DNA from: Pseudomonadota bacterium
GTDB taxonomy: Bacteria; Pseudomonadota; Gammaproteobacteria; Steroidobacterales; Steroidobacteraceae
Assembly: GCA_021845825.1 (NCBI GenBank)
Contig: JAJZVF010000001.1
Span: 1-55,491, forward strand
Direction of reading: 5' to 3'
DNA length: 55,491 nucleotides
Shown here one piece after another: positions 114 to 13,467 of the stretch (its first letter is position 1; each line of letters starts with the position of its first letter). The translations under genes were made by a program, and so were the position numbers. The notes beneath the pieces are model-generated. The model was not told the DNA's origin. It was given only the letters and a program-made list of their open reading frames with translations, and searched no databases.

Positions 114-147
114 CAGCGGTCCCAGCCCCCACGACCTCACGACGATC

Positions 148-290
148 TGTGGGTTGACGCATGAAGTGAGATCTCCACACATTTAAAATCAATGGCTTAT
201 GCGCGCAGATGCAGCGTAAGCTGAGGCCAATTCACCCCATAAGATGAGATTTTCGACATTAGATTTACGCATAAGGTGAGATTTTCCACC
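148..290. repeat. Left-end repeat array of the Tn7-like element (tip + 4 spaced motif copies)
   Basis: Motif copies: ATGAAGTGAGATCT 161-174, GTAAGCTGAGGCC 216-228, CATAAGATGAGATTTT 238-253, CATAAGGTGAGATTTT 270-285. All are in the same orientation, spaced about 55/22/32 bp. Confidence 0.6.
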
Positions 291-302
291 CTGCTGGCGC
301 CC

Positions 303-333
303 ATATCCCACAAAATCGGATATTGTGGGATAT
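303..333. promoter_or_regulatory. Operator-like 31-bp palindrome 1 upstream of the cargo gene
   Basis: ATATCCCACAAAAT-CGG-ATATTGTGGGATAT: 14-nt arms with one mismatch. Confidence 0.5.
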
Positions 334-356
334 GACCTCGGAAGCGGGTATATTCC

Positions 357-387
357 GTATCCCACAATCATGGACATTGTGGGATAC
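357..387. promoter_or_regulatory. Operator-like 31-bp palindrome 2, abutting the start codon of the cargo gene
   Basis: GTATCCCACAAT-CATGGAC-ATTGTGGGATAC: perfect 12-nt arms with the same half-site as palindrome 1. Centres are 54 bp apart. A TATATT -10-like hexamer (349-354) lies between them, and the ATG at 393 is 6 nt downstream. Confidence 0.5.
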
Positions 388-392
388 GCGAG

Positions 393-1439
393 ATGTCCAC
401 GCTTTCCGTGCCTCACGAACGGGCGCTCTCTTTGCTGCTCACCGAGCTGCAAAACTCTGCCGAGCAGCAGCCAGAGGCATTGCTTGGCTCACCCGGGACC
501 CTGGCTGAGCGCACCAATGCGACCGGCACCCGCTTCTGGGTCCACCGGTATTCAGACGCTGCCGGTCGACGCCAGGAAGTCTATCTGGGCAAGGCCGATG
601 AACCGGCGGTGATCGCTCGTGTTGCCAACCTGAGCGAGCGGATTAGGCGGGCAAATGACGCCATCGCCAGCGTCAGATTGCTCGCGCGGGCGGGATTCGC
701 CACCGTTGATCGCAAAGCATTTGCCACCTTGGTGAGTTTACACAACCATGGCCTGTTCCGAGCGGGAGCGCTATTGGTTGGATCTCACGCCTACGGCGCG
801 TTGCTCAACGTGCTTGGAGTGCGCGCAGTGGCATATTCAACCGAAGACGTGGACATAGCACGTCGTGAGCAGCTCGCCATCTCTCGTGTTCCGCCTTTCA
901 TTGACATGCTTCGCGAGACGGGTCTCGATTTCTTTCCCGTCCCTGCGCTTCATCGGCGCGCCCCGTCTACGTCCTTCGCGGAGCGAGGCGGCTCTCGTCT
1001 GCGGGTCGATCTGCTCGTACCGTCACCGAATAGCGATTATCCGACAATTCCGGTTCCTGAGCTCGGGGCGCACGCAAAAGGACTGCCATACTTAGCCTAT
1101 CTGCTCGGCGTATCTCAGGAGGTTCCTATTCTCAGCCCTCACGGAGTCGTGATGGTGCGGGTACCTGTGCCGGAACGTTTCGCGGTACACAAGCTCATCG
1201 TCTCGCAGCTCAGGGCCGGGGTAAGCACTAAGCCCGAAAAGGACTTGAGGCAAGCGGGAACGATGGTCGAAGCCGTCACTGAGCGCTTTCCGAACGCGGT
1301 GGCTGACGCGCTTGCTGCGGTTCCGAAAAGCGCGAATCGCTATGTGACCCGAGCCATCAAAGCACTGGAACGTCACCTCCCGTTTTCGGCCGAAAGTGCC
1401 TGGGACGAGTTACGAACGGCGCAGATTCGCAAAGCATGA
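393..1439 (+). CDS. Nucleotidyltransferase-fold protein (GSU2403-family / AbiEii-like, possible toxin-type NTase)
   Basis: 348-aa ORF. Pol-beta-type NTase signature G-S...D-x-D in LLVGSHAYGALLNVLGVRAVAYSTEDVDIA. Size fits GSU2403-family NTase-fold proteins; the family call is from memory, not searched. Confidence 0.75.
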   Translation: MSTLSVPHERALSLLLTELQNSAEQQPEALLGSPGTLAERTNATGTRFWVHRYSDAAGRRQEVYLGKADEPAVIARVANLSERIRRANDAIASVRLLARAGFATVDRKAFATLVSLHNHGLFRAGALLVGSHAYGALLNVLGVRAVAYSTEDVDIARREQLAISRVPPFIDMLRETGLDFFPVPALHRRAPSTSFAERGGSRLRVDLLVPSPNSDYPTIPVPELGAHAKGLPYLAYLLGVSQEVPILSPHGVVMVRVPVPERFAVHKLIVSQLRAGVSTKPEKDLRQAGTMVEAVTERFPNAVADALAAVPKSANRYVTRAIKALERHLPFSAESAWDELRTAQIRKA

Positions 1440-1592
1440 TGCATTTGCGCTCCTTCGGACAAAACTTGTTGGGCACCGTCAACCACGAGCACAACGGGCG
1501 CTGCGCATCAATGGGCATATTGGACCCAGCCAAAACTGGCGGGAGCTTTCGCCCCGCCACAATATGCTCAATCAAGTGCCCTAATCAGTCAG

Positions 1593-1676
1593 ACAGATCT
1601 CACCCCGAAACTCCATTTCGCCTGAAGTCTCAGCTTATGGGGTCAAAATCTCACCTTATGGTGTCACCCACACACA
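1593..1676. repeat. Right-end repeat array of the Tn7-like element (3 inverted motif copies + tip)
   Basis: AGATCTCACCCC 1596-1607, GAAGTCTCAGCTTATGG 1624-1640 and AAAATCTCACCTTATGG 1645-1661 are reverse complements of the left-end motif. The outer two copies are only 21 bp apart. The tip GTCACCCACA ends at 1672. Confidence 0.6.
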
Positions 1677-1703
1677 ATCCCCCTGATGGCATCGCCCACA
1701 CCG

Positions 1704-2477
1704 TCAGCCGCACTTGGAGTCGCCGCAATTCAGACAGGTCATGCAGCCATCCATCATGACGACCGCGGCGGTGCTGCATTTGGCGCAGAGCTGCGCGCCC
1801 TCGGGGAAGCTCGACTTAGCGAACGCATCGGTCTGGCGGGCACGCGCCTCGTATTCCGCCCGCTTCTCGTCCACCAGGCGCTGCTGATGCTCGTCGAGCT
1901 GCGGCTTGCGCAGCAGGCCGATCGTCTGCAGGTGCCGCTCGATGACGTAGCCGAGCTCCGCGATGATGGAAGGCATGAACTTCCCGCCCGGCTGCCAGTA
2001 GCCGCCGCGGGGATCGAACACTGCCTTGAGCTCATCGACCAGGAAAGTGACATCACCGCCCTTGCGGAATACGGCGGAGATGATGCGCGTCAGCGCCACG
2101 ATCCACTGGAAGTGATCGAGGTTCTTGGAATTGATGAAGATCTCGAACGGCCGGCGCTGCTCGAACTCCGTGTCCTCGTTGAGCACGATGTCGTTGATGG
2201 TGACGTACATCGCGTGATCGGAGATCGGAGTCTTGATCTTGTAGGTCGAGCCGACCAGCACCTCCGGACGCTCGAGCTTCTCGTGCATGCGTATGACCTG
2301 CGCCAGGTGGCCGTGCTTGTCGCGCACCGTCTGTCCGACTGCGGCCGGTGGCGCAGGCGGCGGTGAAGCAGGCGGGACGGCCGCCGGCACCGCGGCGCTC
2401 TTGGCGCTTGCAGCGGGTTTGTCCTCGGGTTTCTGCACATCGTACTTGACGATCTTGCGTTCGATCTTGATGGTCAT
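1704..2477 (-). CDS. nrdJb: Class II (adenosylcobalamin-dependent) ribonucleotide reductase, small C-terminal piece NrdJb
   Basis: ...TYKIKTPISDHAMYVTINDIV...PFEIFINSKN... with a Cys-rich tail CAKCSTAAVVMMDGCMTCLNCGDSKCG. Start taken at MTIKIERK (ATG 2477, GGAG upstream) rather than 2507. The gene follows nrdJa by 48 nt, as in the split NrdJa/NrdJb of Pseudomonas. Confidence 0.88.
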   Translation of the reverse strand: MTIKIERKIVKYDVQKPEDKPAASAKSAAVPAAVPPASPPPAPPAAVGQTVRDKHGHLAQVIRMHEKLERPEVLVGSTYKIKTPISDHAMYVTINDIVLNEDTEFEQRRPFEIFINSKNLDHFQWIVALTRIISAVFRKGGDVTFLVDELKAVFDPRGGYWQPGGKFMPSIIAELGYVIERHLQTIGLLRKPQLDEHQQRLVDEKRAEYEARARQTDAFAKSSFPEGAQLCAKCSTAAVVMMDGCMTCLNCGDSKCG

Positions 2478-2524
2478 GATGCGGCTCTCCTGAAGCTGAT
2501 GGCGCAAGTGCTCTCTACGGCGCT

Positions 2525-4672
2525 TCAGTAACGCCCATAGTATCCGTCGCGCAGCGCATCGAACAAATTCGCGGCCGTGTGCATCTCGCCGTCATATTCA
2601 ATTTCCTCGTCGCCGCGCGCCTCGACCACCGTGCCGTCATCCAGGGTGAATTTGTAGACCGTGTTCTTCAGGTCCTGCTCCTTGACCAGCACGCCCTGGA
2701 AGGCCTCGGGATTGAAGCGGAAGGTGGTGCAGCCTTTCAGGCCCTGCTCGTGTGCATACAGGTATATGTCCTTGAACTTCTCGAACGGGAAATCCGTCGG
2801 CACGTTCGCAGTCTTGGAGATCGACGAATCCACCCACTTCTGCGCCGCCGCCTGCACGTCGACATGCTCTTTCGGCGTGATTTGGTCGGAAGCGACGAAG
2901 TATTCCGGCAGTCTGTCCGATTCGTCCGTGCCGCCGGGCTCGGCCCGGGGATTCACCAGCTCCCGATAGGCGAGCAGCTCGAAGGAATAGACGTCGATCT
3001 TTTCCTTGGTCTTGCGACCCGGCCTGATCACGTTGCGGAAATAATGGTGCGCGAACGAGGGCTCGATGCCGTTGGACGCGTTGTTCGCCAAAGACAGCGA
3101 GATAGTGCCCGTGGGCGCGATGGAGGTGTGATGCGTAAACCGGGCGCCTGTCTCGGCGAGTTTTTCCACGAGCTCCGGTGCCGCCTCGGCCACCCGCTGC
3201 ATGTATCGACTGTAGCGGGCGTGCAACAGCCGGCCCGGGATCCGCGCCCCGGCCCGCCAGCCGTCGCGCGCCATCTCCGGGCGTTTGCGCAGCATTTCGG
3301 CGGTGACCGTGAATTCCTCGGTCATGATGGGTGCCGGGCCCTTCTCGCGGGCGAGTTCCAGCGCCTCCTCCCAGCCGGCGATCGCCATCTCGCGTGAAAC
3401 GTCCTCGGTGAACTTCAGCGACTGCGGGGAGCCGTACTTCATGCCGAGCAAAGTCATGGCGCTACCCAGGCCGAGGAAGCCCATCCCGTGACGGCGCTTG
3501 CGCCGGATCTCCTCGCGCTGCTTCTCGAGCGGCAACCCGTTTATCTCCACCACGTTGTCGAGCATGCGGGTGAAGATCTTCACCACCTCGCGGTATTCGG
3601 CCCAGTCGAATTCCGCCGCAGCCGAAAATGGCCGATGCACGAACCGGGTCAGATTGATCGACCCCAGCAGGCATGCACCATAAGGAGGCAGGCACTGCTC
3701 GCCGCACGGATTGGTGGCGCGGATGTTCTCGCACCACCAGTTGTTGTTCATCTCGTTGGCACGATCGATGAGAACGAAGCCCGGCTCGGCGAAATCGTAG
3801 GTGGAGGTCATGATGACATCCCACATGCGCCGCGCCGGCAATGTCTTGTAGACCTTGCAGGCCACCAGACCCTGCTCGTTGACGACGTAGTTCTCGTGCA
3901 CCGGCCATTCACGCCAGATGAATCTGGCCGGATCGCTCAGCGCGGGCTTTTCCTCTTCGTACTCCTTGCGCGACAGTGGAAATGCGAGCTTCCAGTCACG
4001 GTTCTCCCGCACCGCCTGCATGAATTCGTCGGTGATCAGCAGCGACAGGTTGAATTGGCGCAGGCGGCCGCTCTCGCGCTTGGCACGGATGAATTCCATT
4101 ACATCGGGATGGCCGACGTCGAAGGTGCCCATCTGCGCCCCCCGCCGGCCGCCAGCGGACGAAACGGTAAAACACATCTTGTCGAAGATATCCATGAAGG
4201 AAAGCGGACCCGAAGTGTAGGCACCTGCACCTGACACGTAGGCGCCGCGCGGACGAAGCGTCGAATGCTCATATCCGATGCCACAGCCCGCCTTGAGCGT
4301 GAGCCCGGCCTCGTGCACTTTGCTCAGGATGTCATCCATGGAGTCATGAATCGTTCCTGACACCGTACAGTTGATCGTCGAGGTCGCCGGCTTGTGCTCC
4401 AGCGCTCCGGCATTGGAGGTGATGCGGCCGGCGGGGATGGCGCCGCGGCGCAGCGCCCACAGAAAGCGCTCGTACCAGTGGTCGCGCACCTCTTCGCGCT
4501 CTACGTCGGCGAGGGCACGAGCGACCCGCTTGTACGTATCGTCCATCGTCTTGTCGATGGGCGTGCCGTCTTTCGCGGTGAGCCGGTATTTCTTATCCCA
4601 GATGTCCAAAGACGCTTCCTGGAACGGAATGGCGTCGATGTCCTTCGGTTCGATCTTCACGACAGTATTCAT
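2525..4672 (-). CDS. nrdJa: Class II ribonucleotide reductase, large piece NrdJa
   Basis: 715 aa. Typical RNR strings: TSTINCTVSG, ATNPCGEQCLPPYGACLLGSINL, SISKTANVP. Start taken at MNTVVKIEPK (ATG 4672). Confidence 0.93.
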   Translation of the reverse strand: MNTVVKIEPKDIDAIPFQEASLDIWDKKYRLTAKDGTPIDKTMDDTYKRVARALADVEREEVRDHWYERFLWALRRGAIPAGRITSNAGALEHKPATSTINCTVSGTIHDSMDDILSKVHEAGLTLKAGCGIGYEHSTLRPRGAYVSGAGAYTSGPLSFMDIFDKMCFTVSSAGGRRGAQMGTFDVGHPDVMEFIRAKRESGRLRQFNLSLLITDEFMQAVRENRDWKLAFPLSRKEYEEEKPALSDPARFIWREWPVHENYVVNEQGLVACKVYKTLPARRMWDVIMTSTYDFAEPGFVLIDRANEMNNNWWCENIRATNPCGEQCLPPYGACLLGSINLTRFVHRPFSAAAEFDWAEYREVVKIFTRMLDNVVEINGLPLEKQREEIRRKRRHGMGFLGLGSAMTLLGMKYGSPQSLKFTEDVSREMAIAGWEEALELAREKGPAPIMTEEFTVTAEMLRKRPEMARDGWRAGARIPGRLLHARYSRYMQRVAEAAPELVEKLAETGARFTHHTSIAPTGTISLSLANNASNGIEPSFAHHYFRNVIRPGRKTKEKIDVYSFELLAYRELVNPRAEPGGTDESDRLPEYFVASDQITPKEHVDVQAAAQKWVDSSISKTANVPTDFPFEKFKDIYLYAHEQGLKGCTTFRFNPEAFQGVLVKEQDLKNTVYKFTLDDGTVVEARGDEEIEYDGEMHTAANLFDALRDGYYGRY

Positions 4673-4831
4673 TGTCCGCGGTGCTCCAAGTGCTTGCACA
4701 CCGGATCACAGGGGATACGGGCGATGCGGGAAACGCCGAGCAAAGCGGCCGGGTGCACCGGAACGTCGCCACAGCCTGTATCCCCCCTGAGCCTCCCCGA
4801 CCGCGCGATCCGTTACCGCCTTCTCGGCGAG

Positions 4832-5308: not shown

Positions 5309-5746
5309 ATGACTGTCGTTCGCTATCAGCCCTGGACTCTCTTCGATCGCCTGCAACGCCAACTCGATCAGGCTCTTTCGGTGGAGGCCGGCGAGACAGC
5401 TGATGGGGCGGAAATTTCCTGGATTCCGCAGGTCGATATCCGCGAGGAGCCTGAGCGTTTCGTCGTGCTGGCCGACGTGCCCGGTGTCGAGCCCAAGGAC
5501 ATTCATATCACGGTCGACAAGGGTGTGCTGACGATCCGCGGGGAGAAGCACGCGCGCGAGACACAGCAGCCCAACGGCTGGCAGCGCCTGGAGCGCCGTA
5601 GCGGCTCGTTCCTGCGCCGCTTCACGCTCCCGGAGGGTGCCAATCCGGATGCGATCGCGGCCAAGCACGTCCATGGCGTGCTGGAAGTAACCATTCCCAA
5701 GCAACCTCAGGTGCGGACGAGGCGGATCGAGGTCGAGGCAGCCTGA
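5309..5746 (+). CDS. Hsp20/alpha-crystallin family small heat-shock protein
   Basis: Alpha-crystallin domain (FVVLADVPGVEPKDIHITVDKGVLTIRGEK...FLRRFTLPEGANPDAIAAKHVHGVLEVTIPK). GGAGG lies 8 nt upstream. Confidence 0.93.
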   Translation: MTVVRYQPWTLFDRLQRQLDQALSVEAGETADGAEISWIPQVDIREEPERFVVLADVPGVEPKDIHITVDKGVLTIRGEKHARETQQPNGWQRLERRSGSFLRRFTLPEGANPDAIAAKHVHGVLEVTIPKQPQVRTRRIEVEAA

Positions 5747-5934
5747 CGCCCCTCGGATGTTCGCGGAACCCCGTTTCCGGACCCGGGCCGGCGGACCTTG
5801 CCGGTCCGGGGTAAAATTCGGGGGCCGATACGCCGCGCCTGCCCCAGGTTGACGTAGATGCGGCGGCCGGATTCCTGAGCCGATTGACTCAGGCGCCGGA
5901 TAGACCTCAACCTGCGTGGCGGGGAGGACTGTGA

Positions 5935-6876
5935 ATGGTCGGTGAGCCGATGAACATCTGCGTGTTGGGCGGAACCGGCTTCGTCGGAACCGCCCTCGTC
6001 AACCGGCTGGCACGGGACGGACACTGGGTCGTGGTGCCGACCCGCAATCCTGAGCATGGCCAGCATCTGCGCGTGCTGCCCACTGTGGAGTTGGCAACGG
6101 CCAACGTGCACGACCCGAGCGCGCTCGACCGCCTGGTCACCGGCATGGACGCGGTCATCAACCTGGTCGGCATTCTCAACGAGCACGGCCGTTGCACTTT
6201 CCAGCTGGTGCACGCGGCGCTCGCGCAGAAGCTGGTCGCCGCTCTGAAGGCCGCGCGGGTGCGGCGGCTGCTGCAGATGAGCGCGCTGGGTGCCGATACC
6301 GGCGCCCCCAGCCGCTATCTGCGCTCCAAGGGCGAAGCCGAGGCGCATATCCGCGCAGCCGCCGCACACCTGGATTTCACCATCCTGCGTCCGTCGGTCA
6401 TCTTCGGTCCCGGCGATTCGCTCACCAACCGGTTCGCGAATCTGCTGCGCCTTTCCGGCGGTTTTCTGCCGCTCGCCCGCCCCCAGGCGCGCTTTTCGCC
6501 GGTGTACGTGCACGACGTCACGGAAGCTTTCGCTCGCGCGCTGAGCGACCGCAAGACCCACGGCCAGAGCTATGAGCTCTGCGGCCCGCAGGTGATGACT
6601 CTCGAGCAGCTCGTGCGCACCACCGCGCAGGCGGCGGGCCTGCGCTGCCTGCTCTTGGGGCTCCCCGACCCGATCGGCCGGCTGCAGGCGGCGCTGCTCG
6701 GCGCGTTGCCCGGCAAGCCGCTGACACTGGACAATTTCCGCTCGCTTACCCTTGACAGTGTCTGCGCCGACTCCGGATGCGAGCGCCTCGGCATCGCCCC
6801 GCGCACGATGGCGCAGATCCTGCCCGGCTATCTTCCTTCGCCGGCGACCCCGGGAAATTCACGAGCAATGGCGTGA
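5935..6876 (+). CDS. NAD(P)H-binding SDR, complex I NDUFA9-subunit-like family
   Basis: N-terminal Rossmann motif VLGGTGFVG and the overall NDUFA9/epimerase-like pattern. GGAGGA lies 6 nt upstream of ATG 5935. Confidence 0.85.
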   Translation: MVGEPMNICVLGGTGFVGTALVNRLARDGHWVVVPTRNPEHGQHLRVLPTVELATANVHDPSALDRLVTGMDAVINLVGILNEHGRCTFQLVHAALAQKLVAALKAARVRRLLQMSALGADTGAPSRYLRSKGEAEAHIRAAAAHLDFTILRPSVIFGPGDSLTNRFANLLRLSGGFLPLARPQARFSPVYVHDVTEAFARALSDRKTHGQSYELCGPQVMTLEQLVRTTAQAAGLRCLLLGLPDPIGRLQAALLGALPGKPLTLDNFRSLTLDSVCADSGCERLGIAPRTMAQILPGYLPSPATPGNSRAMA

Positions 6877-6938
6877 CCATTCCCTTCCCCCGCGCCGCGT
6901 TCGTCCGCTTCATGAGCCGCCGGTAAACCGCCGGCCCC

Positions 6939-8153
6939 TCAGGTAAGCGCCTGGATGGCCGCCAAGCGCTTCTCGCGCAGCTTCTCGCCGATCGCGGCGC
7001 CCGCAAGCCCCTGACGCTCCGCTCCCGAGAGGCTGACCGCCGCCGCCGCCGAGCGCATGCGCCGCAGGTATCGGCCCTGGGGGTAGGGTTGGGCCTCGAG
7101 GCCAGCGCGTCCGCGGGCATCGGCTTCGCACGCCCAAAGCAGCTCATCGAAGCGCTCGGGCCGCCGGAAAGCGTCGGTCACCTCAAGCAGCCTGAGCGCC
7201 GCGGCCGGCCGCAGCTCCTGCGCCCGATGTACCAGCGTGTGATGACGCGCGGTGAGCAGCGCGAGGTCACGATATTCGTTCGGCACCTTAAGCCGCGCAC
7301 ATAGCGCTTCGATCGCGGGCACGCCTCCTTCCTCGTGACCATGGTGGCTCGGCCAGCGCTCGGGCGCGGTGAGTGCCTTGCCCAGATCGTGCGTCAGGAC
7401 CGCAAACCGGACGGTCGAGGGCAGACCGGCCCGGGCCGCCCAGCGAAGCGCCAGCATGACGTGCATGCCCGTATCGACTTCCGGATGCCACTTCGGCGGC
7501 TGCGGGACCCCGAAGAGAGCGTCCACCTCGGGAAAAATAAGCCGCAGCGCACCGCATTCGCGCAGGGTCTCGAAGAACACCTCGGGACGGGCTTCCCCGA
7601 GCGCACGCTCGGTCTCCTGCCAGACCCTCTCCGGCACCAGCGCTGCGAGTTCCCCGGATTCGGCCATCCGGCGCATCAGCGCAATGGTCTCCTCCGCCAC
7701 GGTGAAGCCGAGTTCCGCGTATCGGGCAGCGAAACGCGCCACACGCAGCACCCGCACCGGATCTTCGATGAAGGCCTCCGACACGTGGCGCAGCAGGCGG
7801 ACTTCGAGGTCCCGCCGTCCCCCGTAAGGGTCGATGATCTCGCCCGAGGCACTTTCGGCCATCGCGTTGATGGTCAGATCGCGCCGCCGCAGGTCCTCTT
7901 CCAGCGTCACCTCCGGAGAGAATCGGGTCTCGAACCCCCGGTAGCCCGGCGCCACCTTGCGCTCCAGGCGAGCGAGCGCGTATTCCTCGCGGGTTTTCGG
8001 ATGCAGAAACACGGGGAACTCCCTGCCCACGGGCACATAGCCCTGGCGCTCGAGATCCTCCGGGCGCGCCCCGACCACCACCCAGTCGCGCTCCTTGACC
8101 GGCCGCCCGAGCAGCCGGTCCCGCACCGCACCGCCGACCAAGTACACTTGCAT
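6939..8153 (-). CDS. cca: Multifunctional CCA tRNA nucleotidyltransferase (with HD domain)
   Basis: [16 protein letters not shown]...RDLTINAMA head domain plus a C-terminal HD region (LTHDLGK). Confidence 0.93.
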
Positions 8154-8159
8154 ACACGC

Positions 8160-9269
8160 ATGGTAACTCAGTCGCCCTCATCCCCTCCCGGGAATGCTCG
8201 CCGCACTCAGCCGCCTCGCGCGAGGCCGCGAACCGCGCGGCTGGCCGTCGTGCTCACAGCGCTCGCCGCGCTGTCCGGCTGCGCGAGCACGACGTACCTG
8301 TGGCAGGCGGCGAGCGGTGAATGGCATGTCCTGCACGGACGCAAACCCATCATAGACGTGATCGACGAGCCGCAAGCGTCCGAGGCGCTGATCCGAGAGC
8401 TGGCCTACGTCCGGGAAGCCCGCCGCTTCGCCTCGCAGCAGCTGGGATTGCCCAACAACGACAGCTACCGCACCTATGTCAACCTCCACCGCCGATACGT
8501 GGTCTGGAACGTCGTTGCCGCACCCGAGTTCTCCGTCAAACCGAAGCAGTGGTGCTTCCCGTTCGCGGGCTGTGTGGCCTACCGGGGGTACTTCCATGAG
8601 CGCAGCGCGCGGAATTTCGCCAAGACATTGAAGCATCAGGGCTATGACGTCGTGGTCGAGGGAGTGCCCGCCTATTCGACCCTTGGGAAGCTTCCCGATC
8701 CGGTCATGAGCACAATGATGCGCTACGGGCGCGAAGAGCTGGCGGCAATGATCTTCCACGAGCTGGCCCACCAGCTGCTGTACGTGGAGAACGATTCCCG
8801 GTTCGACGAAGCATTTGCCATGACCGTCGAGAATACCGGAATGAAACGTTGGCTCGAGTACCTCCACCAGCCGCAGCGCTTCGTGCAGTTCGAGCGTGAA
8901 AGCGACGCCGCCCGGCAATTCGCCGCGCTGCTCAGATACACGCGCAACCGGCTGGCGAAAGTGTATGCCTCGGGAATTCCGCCACGGCAGATGCTGCGGA
9001 AAAAGCAAGCGTATTTCGCGCGCCTGGCGCAGCACATCCGCTCGCTCGAGCGCCGCCTGGGGTTCGATTCGCCCGTCTACGACAAATGGATCGCCGAGGG
9101 AATGAACAACGCCGACTTGGCCTCCGTGGGCACGTACTACGACTGCCTGCCGGGTTTCGAGCGGCTGCTCCGCAGGGAAGACGGCAACTTACCGCGCTTC
9201 TACGCGGCGGCGCGCCGCCTGGCGCACGAGCCTAAGGCCGAGCGGGATCGGCGGCTGTGCAGGTCATGA
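8160..9269 (+). CDS. Putative lipoprotein zinc aminopeptidase (DUF2265-type 'putative aminopeptidase' family)
   Basis: Lipobox-like ALSGC after a basic N-terminus; HExxH ([10 protein letters not shown]). The start was moved to the in-frame ATG 8160 because the upstream part of track ORF 7335-9269 is antisense to cca. GTG 8250 is an alternative start. Confidence 0.8.
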
Positions 9270-9381
9270 GTGACGGCGCCTCTATACCCTGCGCCCGCTG
9301 GTTGAAACGGGGGCTTTGCGAGGCGACGGCTCCGCACCCGCACGCTTCGATGTCCGGATGAAGGCCGGACCCACGGAAGAT

Positions 9382-10536
9382 CTACAGCGACCCTCGCAGG
9401 TCCTGCAGCGCAAAGCCGGAAAGCGACTCGTCGAGGTCCCGCGTCAGCGCCATCACCTTGAACGCCTCGCCCATCTCGCCGGGCAGCAGCAGCCGGCGCG
9501 CCTCGCCGGCCAGGCGTGCATGTCGTATCGGGTCGACGTTCTCGCCCACGAGCCGCTCGATCCCCGTGCCCAACAGAAACGCCGCCTGGGTTACAAAGCC
9601 GCTCACGTCGAGCCCGCACTCCGTAGCCGCCTCAGCCACCCGTGTGAAATCAACCCACGCAGTGATGTCCTGGACGCCGATGTTGACGTAAGGATCGTCG
9701 TGAACCCGCTGCTTGAAGTGGCATCGCAACGTGCCGGTCGCCCGTTGGGGGTGGTAATAATGAGAGCGCGGCAGACCGTAATCGAACAACAGCATGAGGC
9801 CACGTTCCAGACAGTCAGCCACGCCCGCCAGCCAGGTCCCCGCGCGCAGGCAGATTTCGGACACATAACCTGCAGGCAGCGCGCTTGGCAAACCGCTCAT
9901 CGCGGTAGCGCAGGCGCCGGCGAGCGCCGCATCCGCCGCTCCCTCGCGCTCTACGATGGTCTCACCCTCCACGGCCACACCCATTTCCCGCACGCCTTCC
10001 TCCGCGACCACGAACCGCCGGCACGGCAAGGCATCCAGCACCTCGTTGGCCAGGATGACGCCGGACAGGGGCCTGGCCGGCAGCCGGTCCAGCCACTGCA
10101 CCCGGTCGCACAGCTCGGCCGGCAGTCGGCTGAGCGCTGCACGTTGCCGGTCTCTCAGGTCCGCGCTGACCTCCAAGATGGCGTAGCGTTCCGGAAGTAC
10201 CCCCTGTGCCGACAACGCCGTCAGGACGTCGGCGGCCATGCGGCCGGTACCGGCCCCAAGCTCCAGTATCTCGCCACCGCCCGTGAGCACCTGGGCGCAC
10301 TGCCTCGCCACGCAGCGGCTGAAGAGATCAGAGACCTCCGGCGCGGTGACGAAGTCTCCGCCTCGACCGATCTTGAGGCTACCGGCGCTGTAATAGCCCA
10401 GCCCGGGCGCATACAGCGCGAGCGCCATGAATTCCTCGAACGACAGCCAGCCGCCGGCGGCTCGGATGCGCTCGCGGATCAGCTCGGCCACGTTGCGCGA
10501 GTGCTCGGCCTCCTCGGGCGAGAGTTCAGGGATCAT
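9382..10536 (-). CDS. Class I SAM-dependent methyltransferase, DUF185 / NDUFAF7 (MidA) family
   Basis: ...YYSAGSLKIGRGGDFVTAPEVS...ILELGAGTGRMA... Start at MIPELSPEE (ATG 10536). Confidence 0.85.
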   Translation of the reverse strand: MIPELSPEEAEHSRNVAELIRERIRAAGGWLSFEEFMALALYAPGLGYYSAGSLKIGRGGDFVTAPEVSDLFSRCVARQCAQVLTGGGEILELGAGTGRMAADVLTALSAQGVLPERYAILEVSADLRDRQRAALSRLPAELCDRVQWLDRLPARPLSGVILANEVLDALPCRRFVVAEEGVREMGVAVEGETIVEREGAADAALAGACATAMSGLPSALPAGYVSEICLRAGTWLAGVADCLERGLMLLFDYGLPRSHYYHPQRATGTLRCHFKQRVHDDPYVNIGVQDITAWVDFTRVAEAATECGLDVSGFVTQAAFLLGTGIERLVGENVDPIRHARLAGEARRLLLPGEMGEAFKVMALTRDLDESLSGFALQDLRGSL

Positions 10537-10571
10537 AATGTCCGTATGCTCCGGCCTCACGCAGTAGCCCA

Positions 10572-11342
10572 ATGACCGATTCCGCAGACGCACCTTCCCG
10601 CAAGCCCCTCGTCGGCAAAGCGGCCCTGATCACCGGCGGCGCACGCCGCCTGGGCGCTGTGCTCACGCGCGCCTTGCACGAAGCGGGCGCCAATGTCGTG
10701 CTTCACTACCGCACCTCCGCCGAGGCGGCAACAACCCTGGCAAGAGAGCTGAACGAGACTCGCGCCGGCTCCGTGGTACTCGCGCAATGCGATCTGCTCG
10801 ACACCGCCTCGCTGGAACAATTGGCCCGTACCGCCACGGCGGCGTTCGCCCGCCTCGACATCCTGGTGAACAACGCCTCGACCTTCTATCCCACCCCGAT
10901 GGGCGAGATCAGCGCGCGAGCGTGGGACGATCTGATCGGCACAAACCTCAAGGCACCGCTGTTTCTCGCCCAGGCGGCAGCGGCCGAGCTGCACGAGAAC
11001 CGCGGGCTGATCCTCAATCTGGTGGACATTCACGGCATGCGGCCTCTGCGGCGCCATCCGGTCTACAGCGTCGCCAAGGCGGGTCTGATCATGCTCACCA
11101 AGTCGCTCGCCCGCGAACTGGGTCCGCAGGTGCGGGTCAACGCGGTCGCGCCCGGTCCGGTCATGTGGCCGGAGGCGGGTATGGACGAAGTGCTGCGCAA
11201 GCACGTCATCGACCGCACGGCGCTCAAGCGCGGCGGCTCGCCGGAAGATGTCGCACGCGCAGCGCTCTATTTCGCCTGCGATGCGCCATTCGTCACGGGA
11301 CAGGTTCTGGCGGTCGATGGCGGCCGAAGCATCGGCTGGTAA
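10572..11342 (+). CDS. Pteridine reductase (FolM-like SDR)
   Basis: SDR motifs TGGARRLG and YSVAKAG. It lies adjacent to and convergent with folK-folB. Confidence 0.8.
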   Translation: MTDSADAPSRKPLVGKAALITGGARRLGAVLTRALHEAGANVVLHYRTSAEAATTLARELNETRAGSVVLAQCDLLDTASLEQLARTATAAFARLDILVNNASTFYPTPMGEISARAWDDLIGTNLKAPLFLAQAAAAELHENRGLILNLVDIHGMRPLRRHPVYSVAKAGLIMLTKSLARELGPQVRVNAVAPGPVMWPEAGMDEVLRKHVIDRTALKRGGSPEDVARAALYFACDAPFVTGQVLAVDGGRSIGW

Positions 11343-11347
11343 CGGGG

Positions 11348-11848
11348 TCAATCGTCGCCTTTCCCGCCCGGGCGCACCCGGACCAGCGGGTGCGCGGCGC
11401 GGTCGAATCGCCGCCACAGCTCCCCGATAGTGATTTTTTCCGTCGGATGAACGAGCCCAGGAGCCAGGTCAGCGAGCGGCCCGAGCATGTAGGCGCGCGT
11501 CAGCAGGTCGGGACGCGGCAAATTCAGTAACGCTGTCTGGCGGACCAGATCCCCGTACAGCAATACGTCTAGATCCATGGTCCGCGGCGCCCACCGCGGC
11601 GCCTCGCGCGTGCGGCCGCACAACGCCTCGATGAAGTGCAGCCTCTCGACCACGCCCTCGACCGCCAGGTCCGTGGAGAATCCGGCCACGAAGTTGATGA
11701 AGTCATCGCCCTGGAAGCCGACCGCGCGATTGCGATACCACGCGGAAAATTGCACGCCCGGGAAGTGCTGCTCGAGCTCTCTGGACGCCATCGCAAGATG
11801 ATGCTCAGGCTCGACGTTGCTGCCGGCAGCAATGTAGACATGTGGCAT
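11348..11848 (-). CDS. folK: 2-amino-4-hydroxy-6-hydroxymethyldihydropteridine diphosphokinase
   Basis: VYIAAGSNVEP...PRTMDLDVLLYG...LPRPDL... is the typical HPPK pattern. Confidence 0.9.
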   Translation of the reverse strand: MPHVYIAAGSNVEPEHHLAMASRELEQHFPGVQFSAWYRNRAVGFQGDDFINFVAGFSTDLAVEGVVERLHFIEALCGRTREAPRWAPRTMDLDVLLYGDLVRQTALLNLPRPDLLTRAYMLGPLADLAPGLVHPTEKITIGELWRRFDRAAHPLVRVRPGGKGDD

Positions 11849-11854
11849 GGCTGC

Positions 11855-12259
11855 TCAGAGCCGCGCCGCCGCTGCGGCGGTCAGGTCCGCCCGGCTGCGC
11901 TCGATCACTACGCCCACGTCGCGCGAGTTGCGGATGGCACCCGGCTTGTTGAGCGACACGCGTACCCATTCGACCGCGAACTCTTCCAGGAGCAGTAACG
12001 CCAGGCGGTGCGCCAGCGTCTCGACGAGCTTGAACTCGGAGGCCTCGATGTAGGCCAACACGCGCTTGGCGACCCGCTTGTAGTCCACGGTATCGGCCAC
12101 ATCGTCGGAAGCTGCAGCGCGACGGCAGTCCACCGGCAGCTCGAGGTCCACCACGACGGTCTGCTTGACGCGCCGCTCCCAATCGATGAAGCCGATGATG
12201 CACTCGGCGGCAAGTCCCCGCAGGAAGATCCGATCGCCGGAAATGAGCGCGCTGGTCAT
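11855..12259 (-). CDS. folB: Dihydroneopterin aldolase
   Basis: DRIFLRGLAAECIIGFIDWERRVKQTVVVDLEL...DYKRVAKRV...KLVETLA. Start at MTSALISGDR (ATG 12259); the upstream part of the track ORF looks non-coding. Confidence 0.88.
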   Translation of the reverse strand: MTSALISGDRIFLRGLAAECIIGFIDWERRVKQTVVVDLELPVDCRRAAASDDVADTVDYKRVAKRVLAYIEASEFKLVETLAHRLALLLLEEFAVEWVRVSLNKPGAIRNSRDVGVVIERSRADLTAAAAARL

Positions 12260-12450
12260 GCTGTCTCTGTCACCGTATGAAGAAGCGCTGGATCCGGGCA
12301 TCGTACCCGGCCCGGCTCGGCGGCGCTCAATAAAGGATGGGTTCGTGCCCCGCCGCTCTGCGCCTACGGCGGCGGGTGCGCCCCTGTGCCGCGCCTGCGG
12401 TTCATCGCACGGGGGACCTCGGGCCCCACCGGATGTGGAAAATTGTCGAC

Positions 12451-13467
12451 TTAATTCACCGCCGCCAGCGATTCGAGGGGCCACTGCGCGCGCGCCTCGA
12501 TGGCGAGCCCGCTTCGCTCGCCCGCTTTCAGGCGCGCCAGCCCGGCTACCGCGATCATCGCCGCATTGTCGGTGCAGAACTCAATCCGTGGATAGTACAC
12601 ACGCCCCCCAAGACGGCCGACGGCCTCGGCCAGCCGGGCGCGCAAGCGCTGATTGGCGCTCACCCCACCTGAGACCACTAGTGTGTCGAGGCCGGTGACC
12701 TCGAGCGCCCGCATGGCCTTGGCGGCCAGGGTGTCCACGATAGCTTCTTCGACGGCGCGCGCGACATCCGCCTTCAGCTGCTCCGTGAGGTCGCGGCCGC
12801 GCAGCGCATGCAGCACCGCGGTTTTCAGACCGGAGAAGCTGAACTCCAATCCCGGCTGATCGAGCATGGGGCGAGGGAAATGGAACTCACCGCCCACGCC
12901 GGCGCGCGCCAGCCTTGCAAGCTCCGGCCCACCGGGGTACGGCAGGCCAAGGAGCTTGGCGGTCTTGTCGAACGCCTCCCCGGCCGCATCGTCGCGGGTG
13001 TCGCCGAGAATCCGGTAACGGCCGATGGCGCTCACTTCGATGAGCTGCGTATGCCCTCCTGAGACCAGCAGCGCCAGATGAGGGAACGGCGGCGGGTTCG
13101 GCTCGAGCAGGGGGGCGAGAAGGTGTCCTTCGAGGTGGTGCACAGCGACGGCCGGTCGCCCCCAGGCATAGGCCAGGCTGCGCGCGAGCGCCGCCCCGGT
13201 GAGCAAGGCCCCGATCAACCCGGGTCCGGCGGTATAAGCCACTCCCGAAAGCTCCCCGGGGGCCGTGGGGGCGCGCTCCAGCGCCCGCCTCACGAGAGGC
13301 AGGAGCTTGCGCACATGGTCTCGGGAAGCCAGCTCCGGCACGACGCCTCCGTAGGCGCGGTGCAGCTCGATCTGGCTATGGAGTTCGTGCGCGAGCAGCC
13401 CGCGAGCCTCATCGAGCACCGCGGCCGCACTCTCGTCACAGGAGGACTCGATCGCCAGTATCCGCAT
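12451..13467 (-). CDS. tsaD: tRNA N6-adenosine threonylcarbamoyltransferase
   Basis: [17 protein letters not shown]...[12 protein letters not shown]...[10 protein letters not shown]...VSGGVSAN. Confidence 0.95.

Follow-up and report, generated by a model that had tools for sequence, protein, structure and literature searches.

A probable non-autonomous Tn7-like element inserted after nrdJ, the gene of class II ribonucleotide reductase

The 55,491-nt stretch analysed here (contig JAJZVF010000001.1 of the Steroidobacteraceae assembly GCA_021845825.1), called the window below, contains a 1.5-kb segment (148-1672) downstream of the split class II ribonucleotide reductase (RNR) genes nrdJb and nrdJa. 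It is bounded by inverted tips, TGTGGG at 148-153 being mirrored by CCCACA at 1667-1672, and carries one gene, coding for a nucleotidyltransferase (NTase) fold protein. An initial annotation, made from the sequence of the window alone, had described the segment as a Tn7-like element devoid of transposase genes and inserted next to nrdJb. Here we describe its anatomy and its relatives, which are designated by locus number (L005, L016 and so on), and weigh the explanations for its presence at this place.

Anatomy of the segment downstream of nrdJb

Table 1. Features of the segment and of the neighbouring genes (positions in the window)
Feature	Position	Strand	Description
Left end (L)	148-289	+	tip TGTGGGTTGACG, then L1-L4; L-end homologues in L108, L064, L103 and L118 (autonomous)
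L1 repeat	160-175	+	degenerate
IHF-consensus box	187-199	+	AATCAATGGCTTA (consensus WATCAANNNNTTR); between L1 and L2
L2 repeat	215-226	+	degenerate
L3 repeat	238-253	+	
L4 repeat	270-285	+	
Palindromic operators (two)	302-334 and 356-388		TATCCCACAA-N-TTGTGGGATA; upstream of the cargo gene
Cargo gene	393-1439	+	GSU2403-family nucleotidyltransferase-fold protein (PF12281 NTP_transf_8, E 5.7e-39), 348 aa
GC-rich hairpin and T-run	1537-1559	-	TGGCGGGGCGAAAGCTCCCGCCA GTTTTGG; part of the R-end module and conserved among seven elements
Right end (R)	1590-1672	-	tip TGTGGGTGACAC at 1661-1672; homologous to the R ends of L103, L120 and L108 (mini elements) and of L105 (autonomous)
Conserved internal R-end segment	1590-1623	-	
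R2 repeat	1624-1639	-	21-nt spacing to R1
R1 repeat	1645-1660	-	
Spacer, R tip to nrdJb stop	1673-1703	-	31 nt; diverged end-like relic at 1677-1701, TGTGGGCGATGCCATCAGGGGGATT
nrdJb	1704-2507	-	TSCPD domain; gene of the proposed attachment site
nrdJa	2525-4699	-	class II RNR, catalytic part (RNR barrel), 724 aa; co-oriented upstream of nrdJb

Over their 25 nt, the two terminal arms (148-172 and 1648-1672) show 72% complementarity. When the window was scanned with the motif CATAAGNTGAGATYT, allowing up to three mismatches, five matches were obtained against 1.2 expected, a number reached in none of 100 shuffles. All five fall within the two ends of the segment, at 160 (two mismatches), 238 and 270 on the + strand and at 1624 and 1645 on the - strand, the rest of the 55 kb being free of the motif. 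A scan with the 12-nt core added a degenerate copy at 215, giving a left array of four copies over about 125 nt (spacings of 55, 23 and 32) and a right array of two solid copies 21 nt apart. The motif scan and the tip complementarity thus confirm the tips, the spaced left array and the packed right array that the initial annotation had recognised, but its count of repeats needs correction: the four left copies stand, two of them in degenerate form, whereas only two of the three copies claimed on the right are clean. The supposed third (around 1593-1604, GGGGTGAGATCT) is a half-match out of the 21-22-nt phase and forms part of the conserved internal segment of the R end. Terminal 5'-TGT...ACA-3' tips, which recur in the relatives described below, and subterminal repeats that are inverted between a spaced left and a packed right end place the segment close to Tn7 and attTn7 (PMC8649781), with which it also shares an offset of about 12 nt between the boundary and the outermost repeat. 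To judge from their sequence, the CATAAG-N-TGAGA repeats would be bound by TnsB.

The box matching the consensus of integration host factor (IHF) in the left end is the sole such match in positions 1-2000 of the window; its AAAATCAA is invariant across the alignment of L ends, and IHF would by analogy bind there. Inside the R-end module, the hairpin with its T-run has the orientation needed to stop transcripts that arrive from nrdJab, and may act as a terminator; since its covariation is weak (one or two compensatory pairs in seven sequences), we claim it as a conserved feature and not as one proven by covariation. No homologue of TnsA, TnsB, TniB or TniQ was found in the window or in the 10 kb to the left. 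As had been noted, the segment thus carries neither tnsA/B/C nor a target selector, and it is therefore non-autonomous.

The single NTase-fold open reading frame (ORF) reported between the ends corresponds to PF12281, which it matches with 134.8 bits against a gathering cutoff of 26.3, and its homologues are named 'GSU2403 family nucleotidyltransferase fold protein' by NCBI. The protein had no match in PADLOC, NCBIfam or PDB sequences, and a literature search found nothing on GSU2403 or PF12281 as a family. Its AlphaFold model has a mean predicted local distance difference test score (pLDDT) of 70, with a core (146-231) below 50, and gave no Foldseek match in the PDB better than E 0.7.

The two palindromes upstream of the gene, each made of GTATCCCACAA, 7-9 nt and TTGTGGGATAC and containing TGTGGG, exist where they had been reported, but they belong to the NTase cassette and not to the element. 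Paired GTATCCCACAA-N-TTGTGGGATAC palindromes are also found upstream of NTase homologues outside transposons, in L112 (5905-6000) and L113/L114 (5905-6000). These homologues are 72-79% identical to the cargo protein and lie beside an operon of CheX, response-regulator and Hpt-kinase genes, the one in L112 being at the edge of a region that bears a type IV secretion system. As the palindromes precede NTase homologues outside Tn7 contexts, we rejected them as transposon sites and take them to be operators of the cassette, through which the NTase would regulate itself by means of its N-terminal domain.

The nrdJ site and the elements found there

One-genome-per-species contigs were searched for two neighbouring repeats (CATAAGNTGAGA, a gap of 5-35 nt, CATAAGNTGAGA), which returned 92 stretches where about two would be expected by chance, as estimated from the size of the collection and the 22 fixed bases. 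Two groups stand out among them, one of which has TGTGGG or TGTCGG tips like those of the window. By BLAST with the NrdJa and NrdJb of the window, members of this group were located after nrdJb in L016, L034, L081, L084 and L085 and after a fused nrdJ in L026, L063, L075, L077 and L091; overall, at least 14 loci from different species have a packed array directly after nrdJ or nrdJb. Nine loci measured automatically have 40-46 nt between the stop codon and the first repeat, and five more look similar by eye, so that the tip lies 28-34 nt past the stop; the 31 nt between the R tip at 1672 and the nrdJb stop codon (1704-1706, - strand) fit this range. This fixed distance holds for split and fused nrdJ alike, with one outlier (L063) whose tip lies about 11 nt from the stop. 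The packed R arrays of these relatives comprise two to five repeats at 21-22 nt.

Insertion is thus specific in orientation and site. As in Tn7, the R end lies at a fixed distance past the stop of a conserved, essential gene, next to its 3' end, and leaves the gene intact. The parallel to attTn7 and glmS that had been drawn from a single locus is therefore borne out across species. Our literature search found no paper linking nrdJ or gyrB to Tn7 or TniQ, although it did not extend to the supplementary tables of large surveys; this agrees with the initial annotation, to which nrdJ was not known as a described attachment gene of the Tn7 family. The relatives of the NrdJb of the window are annotated as Steroidobacteraceae.

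Full-length partners with matching ends, for which a search had been proposed, exist at this site. The core genes for TnsA, TnsB, TnsC and a TniQ-family selector, the same set as in Tn7, lie in elements with homologous ends in L105/L115, L118 and L117. In L105/L115, which come from a metagenome sample (ERZ27237009) that also holds the species of the window, nrdJb is followed by an R end with three packed repeats, two DUF4238 genes, a DUF6471 gene, TnsA (PF08722), TnsB (rve and Mu-transpos_C domains), TniB, a TniQ of 763 aa with an HTH_17 domain, a type I restriction-modification (R-M) system and more, the whole element exceeding 19 kb. L118 holds a complete element of 7,154 bp (5559-12712) at the nrdJb site, in the order R end, DUF6471, TnsA, TnsB, TniB, TniQ (719 aa), a 140-aa helix-turn-helix (HTH) protein and L end. 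Although it shares no more than 44-55% identity with L105 in its Tns proteins (44% for TniQ), the two elements use the same site. This clade of TniQ is rare: a search of 5.8 billion clusters returned 35 proteins at E <= 1e-20. Relatives of the L105 TniQ were not found on metagenome contigs, where the search used exact 8-mer peptide patterns and was too strict.

In all three full elements, a small DUF6471 gene is divergent from tnsA (L105 13624-13887; L117 5683-5955; L118 5847-6125), and may code for a regulator specific to the family.

Homology extends along both ends. The first 15 nt of the L tip of the window (TGTGGGTTGACGCAT) are identical to those of L118, and the two share the order tip-L1-box-L2-L3-L4, in which the IHF-consensus box lies between L1 and L2. 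The L end aligns with L118, L064, L103 and L108 over about 150 nt, box included, and the R end, hairpin included, with both mini and autonomous elements along some 190 nt. Nor is the segment ordinary conserved intergenic DNA, the condition under which its reading as an insert was to be given up: at this place the relatives carry the elements of L103, L105/L115, L118, L016 and L107.

The occupancy of the site varies even within one species, in which, with identical NrdJb protein and spacer, L103, L104 and L106 carry a mini element and L105 the full element. The mini element is 890 bp long and flanked by a perfect TTTGT/TTTGT duplication, and the full element is inserted 2 nt away from its site. 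Given this perfect 5-bp duplication, mini elements of the family do transpose. Another proteobacterial metagenome-assembled genome (MAG; L016, 5931 to beyond 8000) has a distinct mini element, about 2 kb long, after nrdJb, with three packed repeats in its R end, three inverted ones in its L end and one cargo ORF of 303 aa (no match in Pfam, NCBIfam or PADLOC), its L tip lying just past the end of the analysed piece. In L107, nrdJb is separated from a peptidase S46 gene by a remnant of about 100 bp (10795-10893), an extreme deletion derivative at the nrdJ site in which an R-tip-like TGTGTGGGG is joined to parts of an L end (a repeat, an IHF-like box, L1 and the tip-like CAACCCGCA).

Comparison of the nrdJb-downstream regions, which had also been proposed, showed similarity stopping at the tips, but did not yield the target duplication of the window. 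No clean empty site was found in the nearest NrdJb relatives (P0002, P0005, P0006, P0009): other elements occupy L119 and L120, L107 holds the scar just described, and L122 is possibly an empty site. Since no nearest relative shares the left flank of the window, the pre-insertion sequence and the duplication cannot be reconstructed.

The spacer between R tip and nrdJb appears to preserve the trace of an older occupant. In relatives, a conserved 27-mer (TGTCGGGGCCCGCAAAAGATGGAATTT) starts 3 nt after the nrdJb stop (L103 10772-10798, and the equivalent place in L120 and L122), and in L119 (6771-6860) it continues as four packed repeats (CAWAAGNNTGG, 21-22 nt). On this sequence evidence, the 27-mer is apparently the R end of an older nrdJ-targeting generation with a shorter insertion offset, and the present family looks as if it had inserted into that older R end, after its first repeat. 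The conserved 27-mer and the four-repeat R end of L119 led us to reject chance as an explanation for the end-like sequence in the spacer of the window.

The nrdJa genes of the closest relatives, L119 (2342-5809) and L120 (2499-5966), code for 1155 aa and contain an intein with a LAGLIDADG homing-endonuclease domain; the nrdJa of the window has no intein.

The second group among the 92 stretches is a sister family with the tip TGTAGGT and the repeats CATAAGCTGAGAA and CATAAGTTGAGAA, situated a few nt after the stop of gyrB (...AATATCGACGTNTGA; gene identity from Pfam) in many Burkholderiales. It comprises L029 (1746-1790) and about 37 other loci (for example L027, L032, L045, L050 and L058), and L039 has TniB and TniQ beside a matching left-type end. 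The gene gyrB may thus be another attachment site of the Tn7 family.

Sharing between species and alternative explanations

A sister copy of the window element, with the same composite structure and the same junctions, is present in another species (L034/L108). The NTase genes of the two copies are 96% identical in nucleotide sequence (dS 0.09, dN 0.02, the synonymous and non-synonymous divergence), the palindromes 88%, the R ends 84-87% and the L ends 77%, whereas between the two hosts dS amounts to 1.13 for nrdJb and 1.39 for nrdJa. Similarity ends within 0-4 nt of both tips, and the sequences just outside are unrelated (36-38% identity beyond the R tip, 32% beyond the L tip). With a cargo dS of 0.09 against more than 1 for nrdJ, the two copies of the whole element separated several-fold more recently than their hosts did, and a shared unit ending at the transposon tips is what transfer as a unit predicts. 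An rve-domain ORF to the left of L108 was considered as a TnsB remnant and rejected, as it has no similarity to the TnsB of L105.

The anatomy of the segment, the homology of its ends, the fixed-distance association with nrdJ, the polymorphism of the site and the recent sharing between species lead us to regard 148-1672 as a non-autonomous member of a Tn7-like family that has its attachment site at the 3' end of nrdJ/nrdJb, and that moved, or was exchanged between species, as a unit (probability about 0.85). We hold the present-day mobility of the window copy with much less confidence than its identity. The exact NTase protein occurs on 23 metagenomic or MAG contigs, including GCA_027456325.1, and all 23 have the same layout of aldo-keto reductase, element and nrdJb-nrdJa. 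No helper was seen in the same genome, as far as the window and the flanking contigs cover it, and the nearest one found (L105) belongs to another species of the same metagenome sample. These points weigh against the proposed reading, as do several that concern the element itself and are taken up below.

Five independent assemblies of the species of the window (L006-L010) break off at about 11893-11929 of the locus, that is at about 2285-2320 of the window, inside nrdJb. The breaks are likely caused by co-occurring related species with a near-identical nrdJ sequence; the helper-bearing species of L105 is in the same sample as L005.

The most serious alternative, which we nevertheless judge unlikely, is that of an immobile fossil: a full-length element that entered the nrdJb site long ago would have decayed there through internal deletion, its mini form would never have transposed as such, and the similarity of the cargo would be due to the NTase cassette having undergone homologous recombination or gene conversion. 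This cassette also exists outside Tn7 contexts. Several of the adverse observations speak for it. As had been noticed from the start, the window copy has no clean 5-bp target duplication (CGATC at 143-147 and CACAA at 1673-1677), and neither has the sister copy in L108. The autonomous element of L118 also has none although it looks intact, and the missing duplication is therefore not decisive. GATC stands directly outside the L tip in both the window (143-147) and L108 (1699-1703), where the flanks are otherwise unrelated, and this is left unexplained by standard Tn7 transposition. The ends also show wear, with two mismatches in the conserved core of the L1 repeat of the window, two R repeats where autonomous relatives have three, and the loss of the terminal TGT in L108, and the remnant in L107 illustrates how far deletion in situ can go at this site. 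Finally, the non-coding parts (77-88% identity) are about twice as diverged as the synonymous sites of the NTase gene (about 91%), a difference that could reflect constraint on codon usage or recombination inside the element. Against decay in place, the ends are still 77-87% identical where neutral flanks have fallen to 32-38% and host dS exceeds 1, and unconstrained vertical inheritance would have erased them. Similarity stops close to both tips, and the sibling mini element of L103 has a perfect duplication.

It is far less likely still that the ends are those of a TnsA-less element of the Tn5053/Tn402 type (TniA/TniB/TniQ) or of a Mu-type element, and not of the Tn7 family proper. The regulator and the selector do match the Pfam models TniB and TniQ, the transposase matches rve and Mu-transpos_C, and in L091, TnsB-TniB-TniQ lie beside a fused nrdJ with no tnsA visible in the 8-kb piece. 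However, a gene for a PF08722 TnsA-like endonuclease lies directly upstream of tnsB in L105/L115, L117, L118 and L073, its product scoring 64.7 bits against the NCBIfam model TnsA_like, under the 110-bit cutoff of that model. In addition, insertion is site- and orientation-specific after a housekeeping gene and not in res sites, and the selectors of the clade are long TnsD-like TniQ proteins of 719-799 aa with an HTH domain.

The idea that the repeats are regulatory sites of the host or the cargo (operators of the NTase gene or nrdJ) and the tips coincidental, which the real operator-like palindromes with their TGTGGG might suggest, is effectively refuted, since NTase homologues outside Tn7 contexts keep the palindromes without the CATAAG-N-TGAGA repeats, the repeats accompany unrelated cargo and tns genes in many species, and the sister repeat family sits after gyrB.

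Proposed mechanism and place among Tn7-like systems

By analogy with the recognition of glmS by the TnsD of Tn7, the TniQ of a full-length element would recognise the C-terminal coding sequence of nrdJ, which is Cys-rich and highly conserved (in nrdJb probably the region ending in ...MDGCMTCLNCGDSKCG*), and would then steer insertion to a point about 30 nt past the stop and into one orientation, the packed-repeat R end lying beside the gene. The window element would have kept only the parts required in cis, namely an L end with its tip, four repeats and IHF box and an R end with its tip, two repeats and hairpin segment, and these flank one self-contained cassette, the PF12281 NTase gene with its own two palindromic operators. 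Such a unit would have originated from a larger element that lost all but its ends and one cargo gene, and would then have moved or been exchanged between species, most plausibly by Tns proteins supplied in trans by a full-length relative.

The cargo elsewhere in the family comprises Abi_alpha/PDC-S47, HipA, a UvrD-type helicase with PD-(D/E)XK and M78 domains, and type I R-M systems, which fits the defence-rich cargo known from Tn7-like elements (PMC8649781). Given these co-travelling genes, the NTase may reasonably be considered a candidate defence or addiction module. A broader proposal, which we put forward tentatively and with clearly less than even confidence, is that the 3' site of nrdJ, so far undescribed, has been used by at least two generations of elements (with offsets of 3 nt and about 30 nt), that rare helpers with TnsABC and a TniQ of 720-800 aa shuttle single-gene mini elements in trans among Steroidobacteraceae-like Gammaproteobacteria, as natural counterparts of mini-Tn7 cassettes, and that their cargoes, the autoregulated NTase of the window among them, are new defence or addiction genes.

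Despite the shared architecture, the family departs from Tn7 in several respects: the target is nrdJ/nrdJb instead of glmS, the repeats have a different sequence, and the full relatives have cargo and the DUF6471 gene between the R end and tnsA. The window copy itself lacks tns genes and a 5-bp duplication, and has four left and two right repeats where Tn7 has three and four.

Genes for RNR have been reported as targets of other Tn7-like elements, nrdB in Acinetobacter and Guyparkeria (PMC11014353) and nrdD in archaea and some Firmicutes, and their targeting arose independently several times (bioRxiv 10.1101/2025.07.27.667033). The elements described here likewise use an RNR gene as a safe-harbour site, but nrdJ (class II, B12-dependent) is a different, non-homologous target.

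In type I-F CRISPR-associated transposons (VchCAST/Tn6677), a functional IHF site lies in the left end between two terminal repeats and is needed for efficient transposition (PMC10201428). The AATCAATGGCTTA of the window occupies the corresponding position and is a conserved feature of the nrdJ-site family, in which a role of IHF is predicted. Unlike VchCAST, this family has no CRISPR-Cas module, and targeting would be by protein, through the long TniQ.

Movement in trans has precedents as well. In engineered mini-Tn7 and mini-Tn6022 donors, ends and cargo suffice when Tns proteins are supplied in trans, which is the principle of mating-out assays, and degraded natural Tn7-like elements have been suggested to be mobilised in this way (PMC11837452; PMC11014353). 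In contrast to these donors, the window element is a natural one that has been reduced to its two ends and one gene, and two species carry it.

The gene nrdJ adds to the safe-harbour sites of the Tn7 family, and would be the third independent case among RNR genes after nrdB and nrdD. The elements found there illustrate how islands at an attachment site turn over by replacement, nesting and deletion, and the natural ends-only elements of 0.9-2 kb show how far the requirements in cis can be trimmed. With the complete 7.15-kb element of L118 and the helper of L105, whose ends have three repeats, a compact TnsABC+TniQ system with defined ends is available, which could become a protein-guided tool for site-specific insertion in the many bacteria with a class II RNR. 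The cargo of the window element, in turn, draws attention to a widespread and unstudied family of NTase-fold proteins with conserved paired operators.

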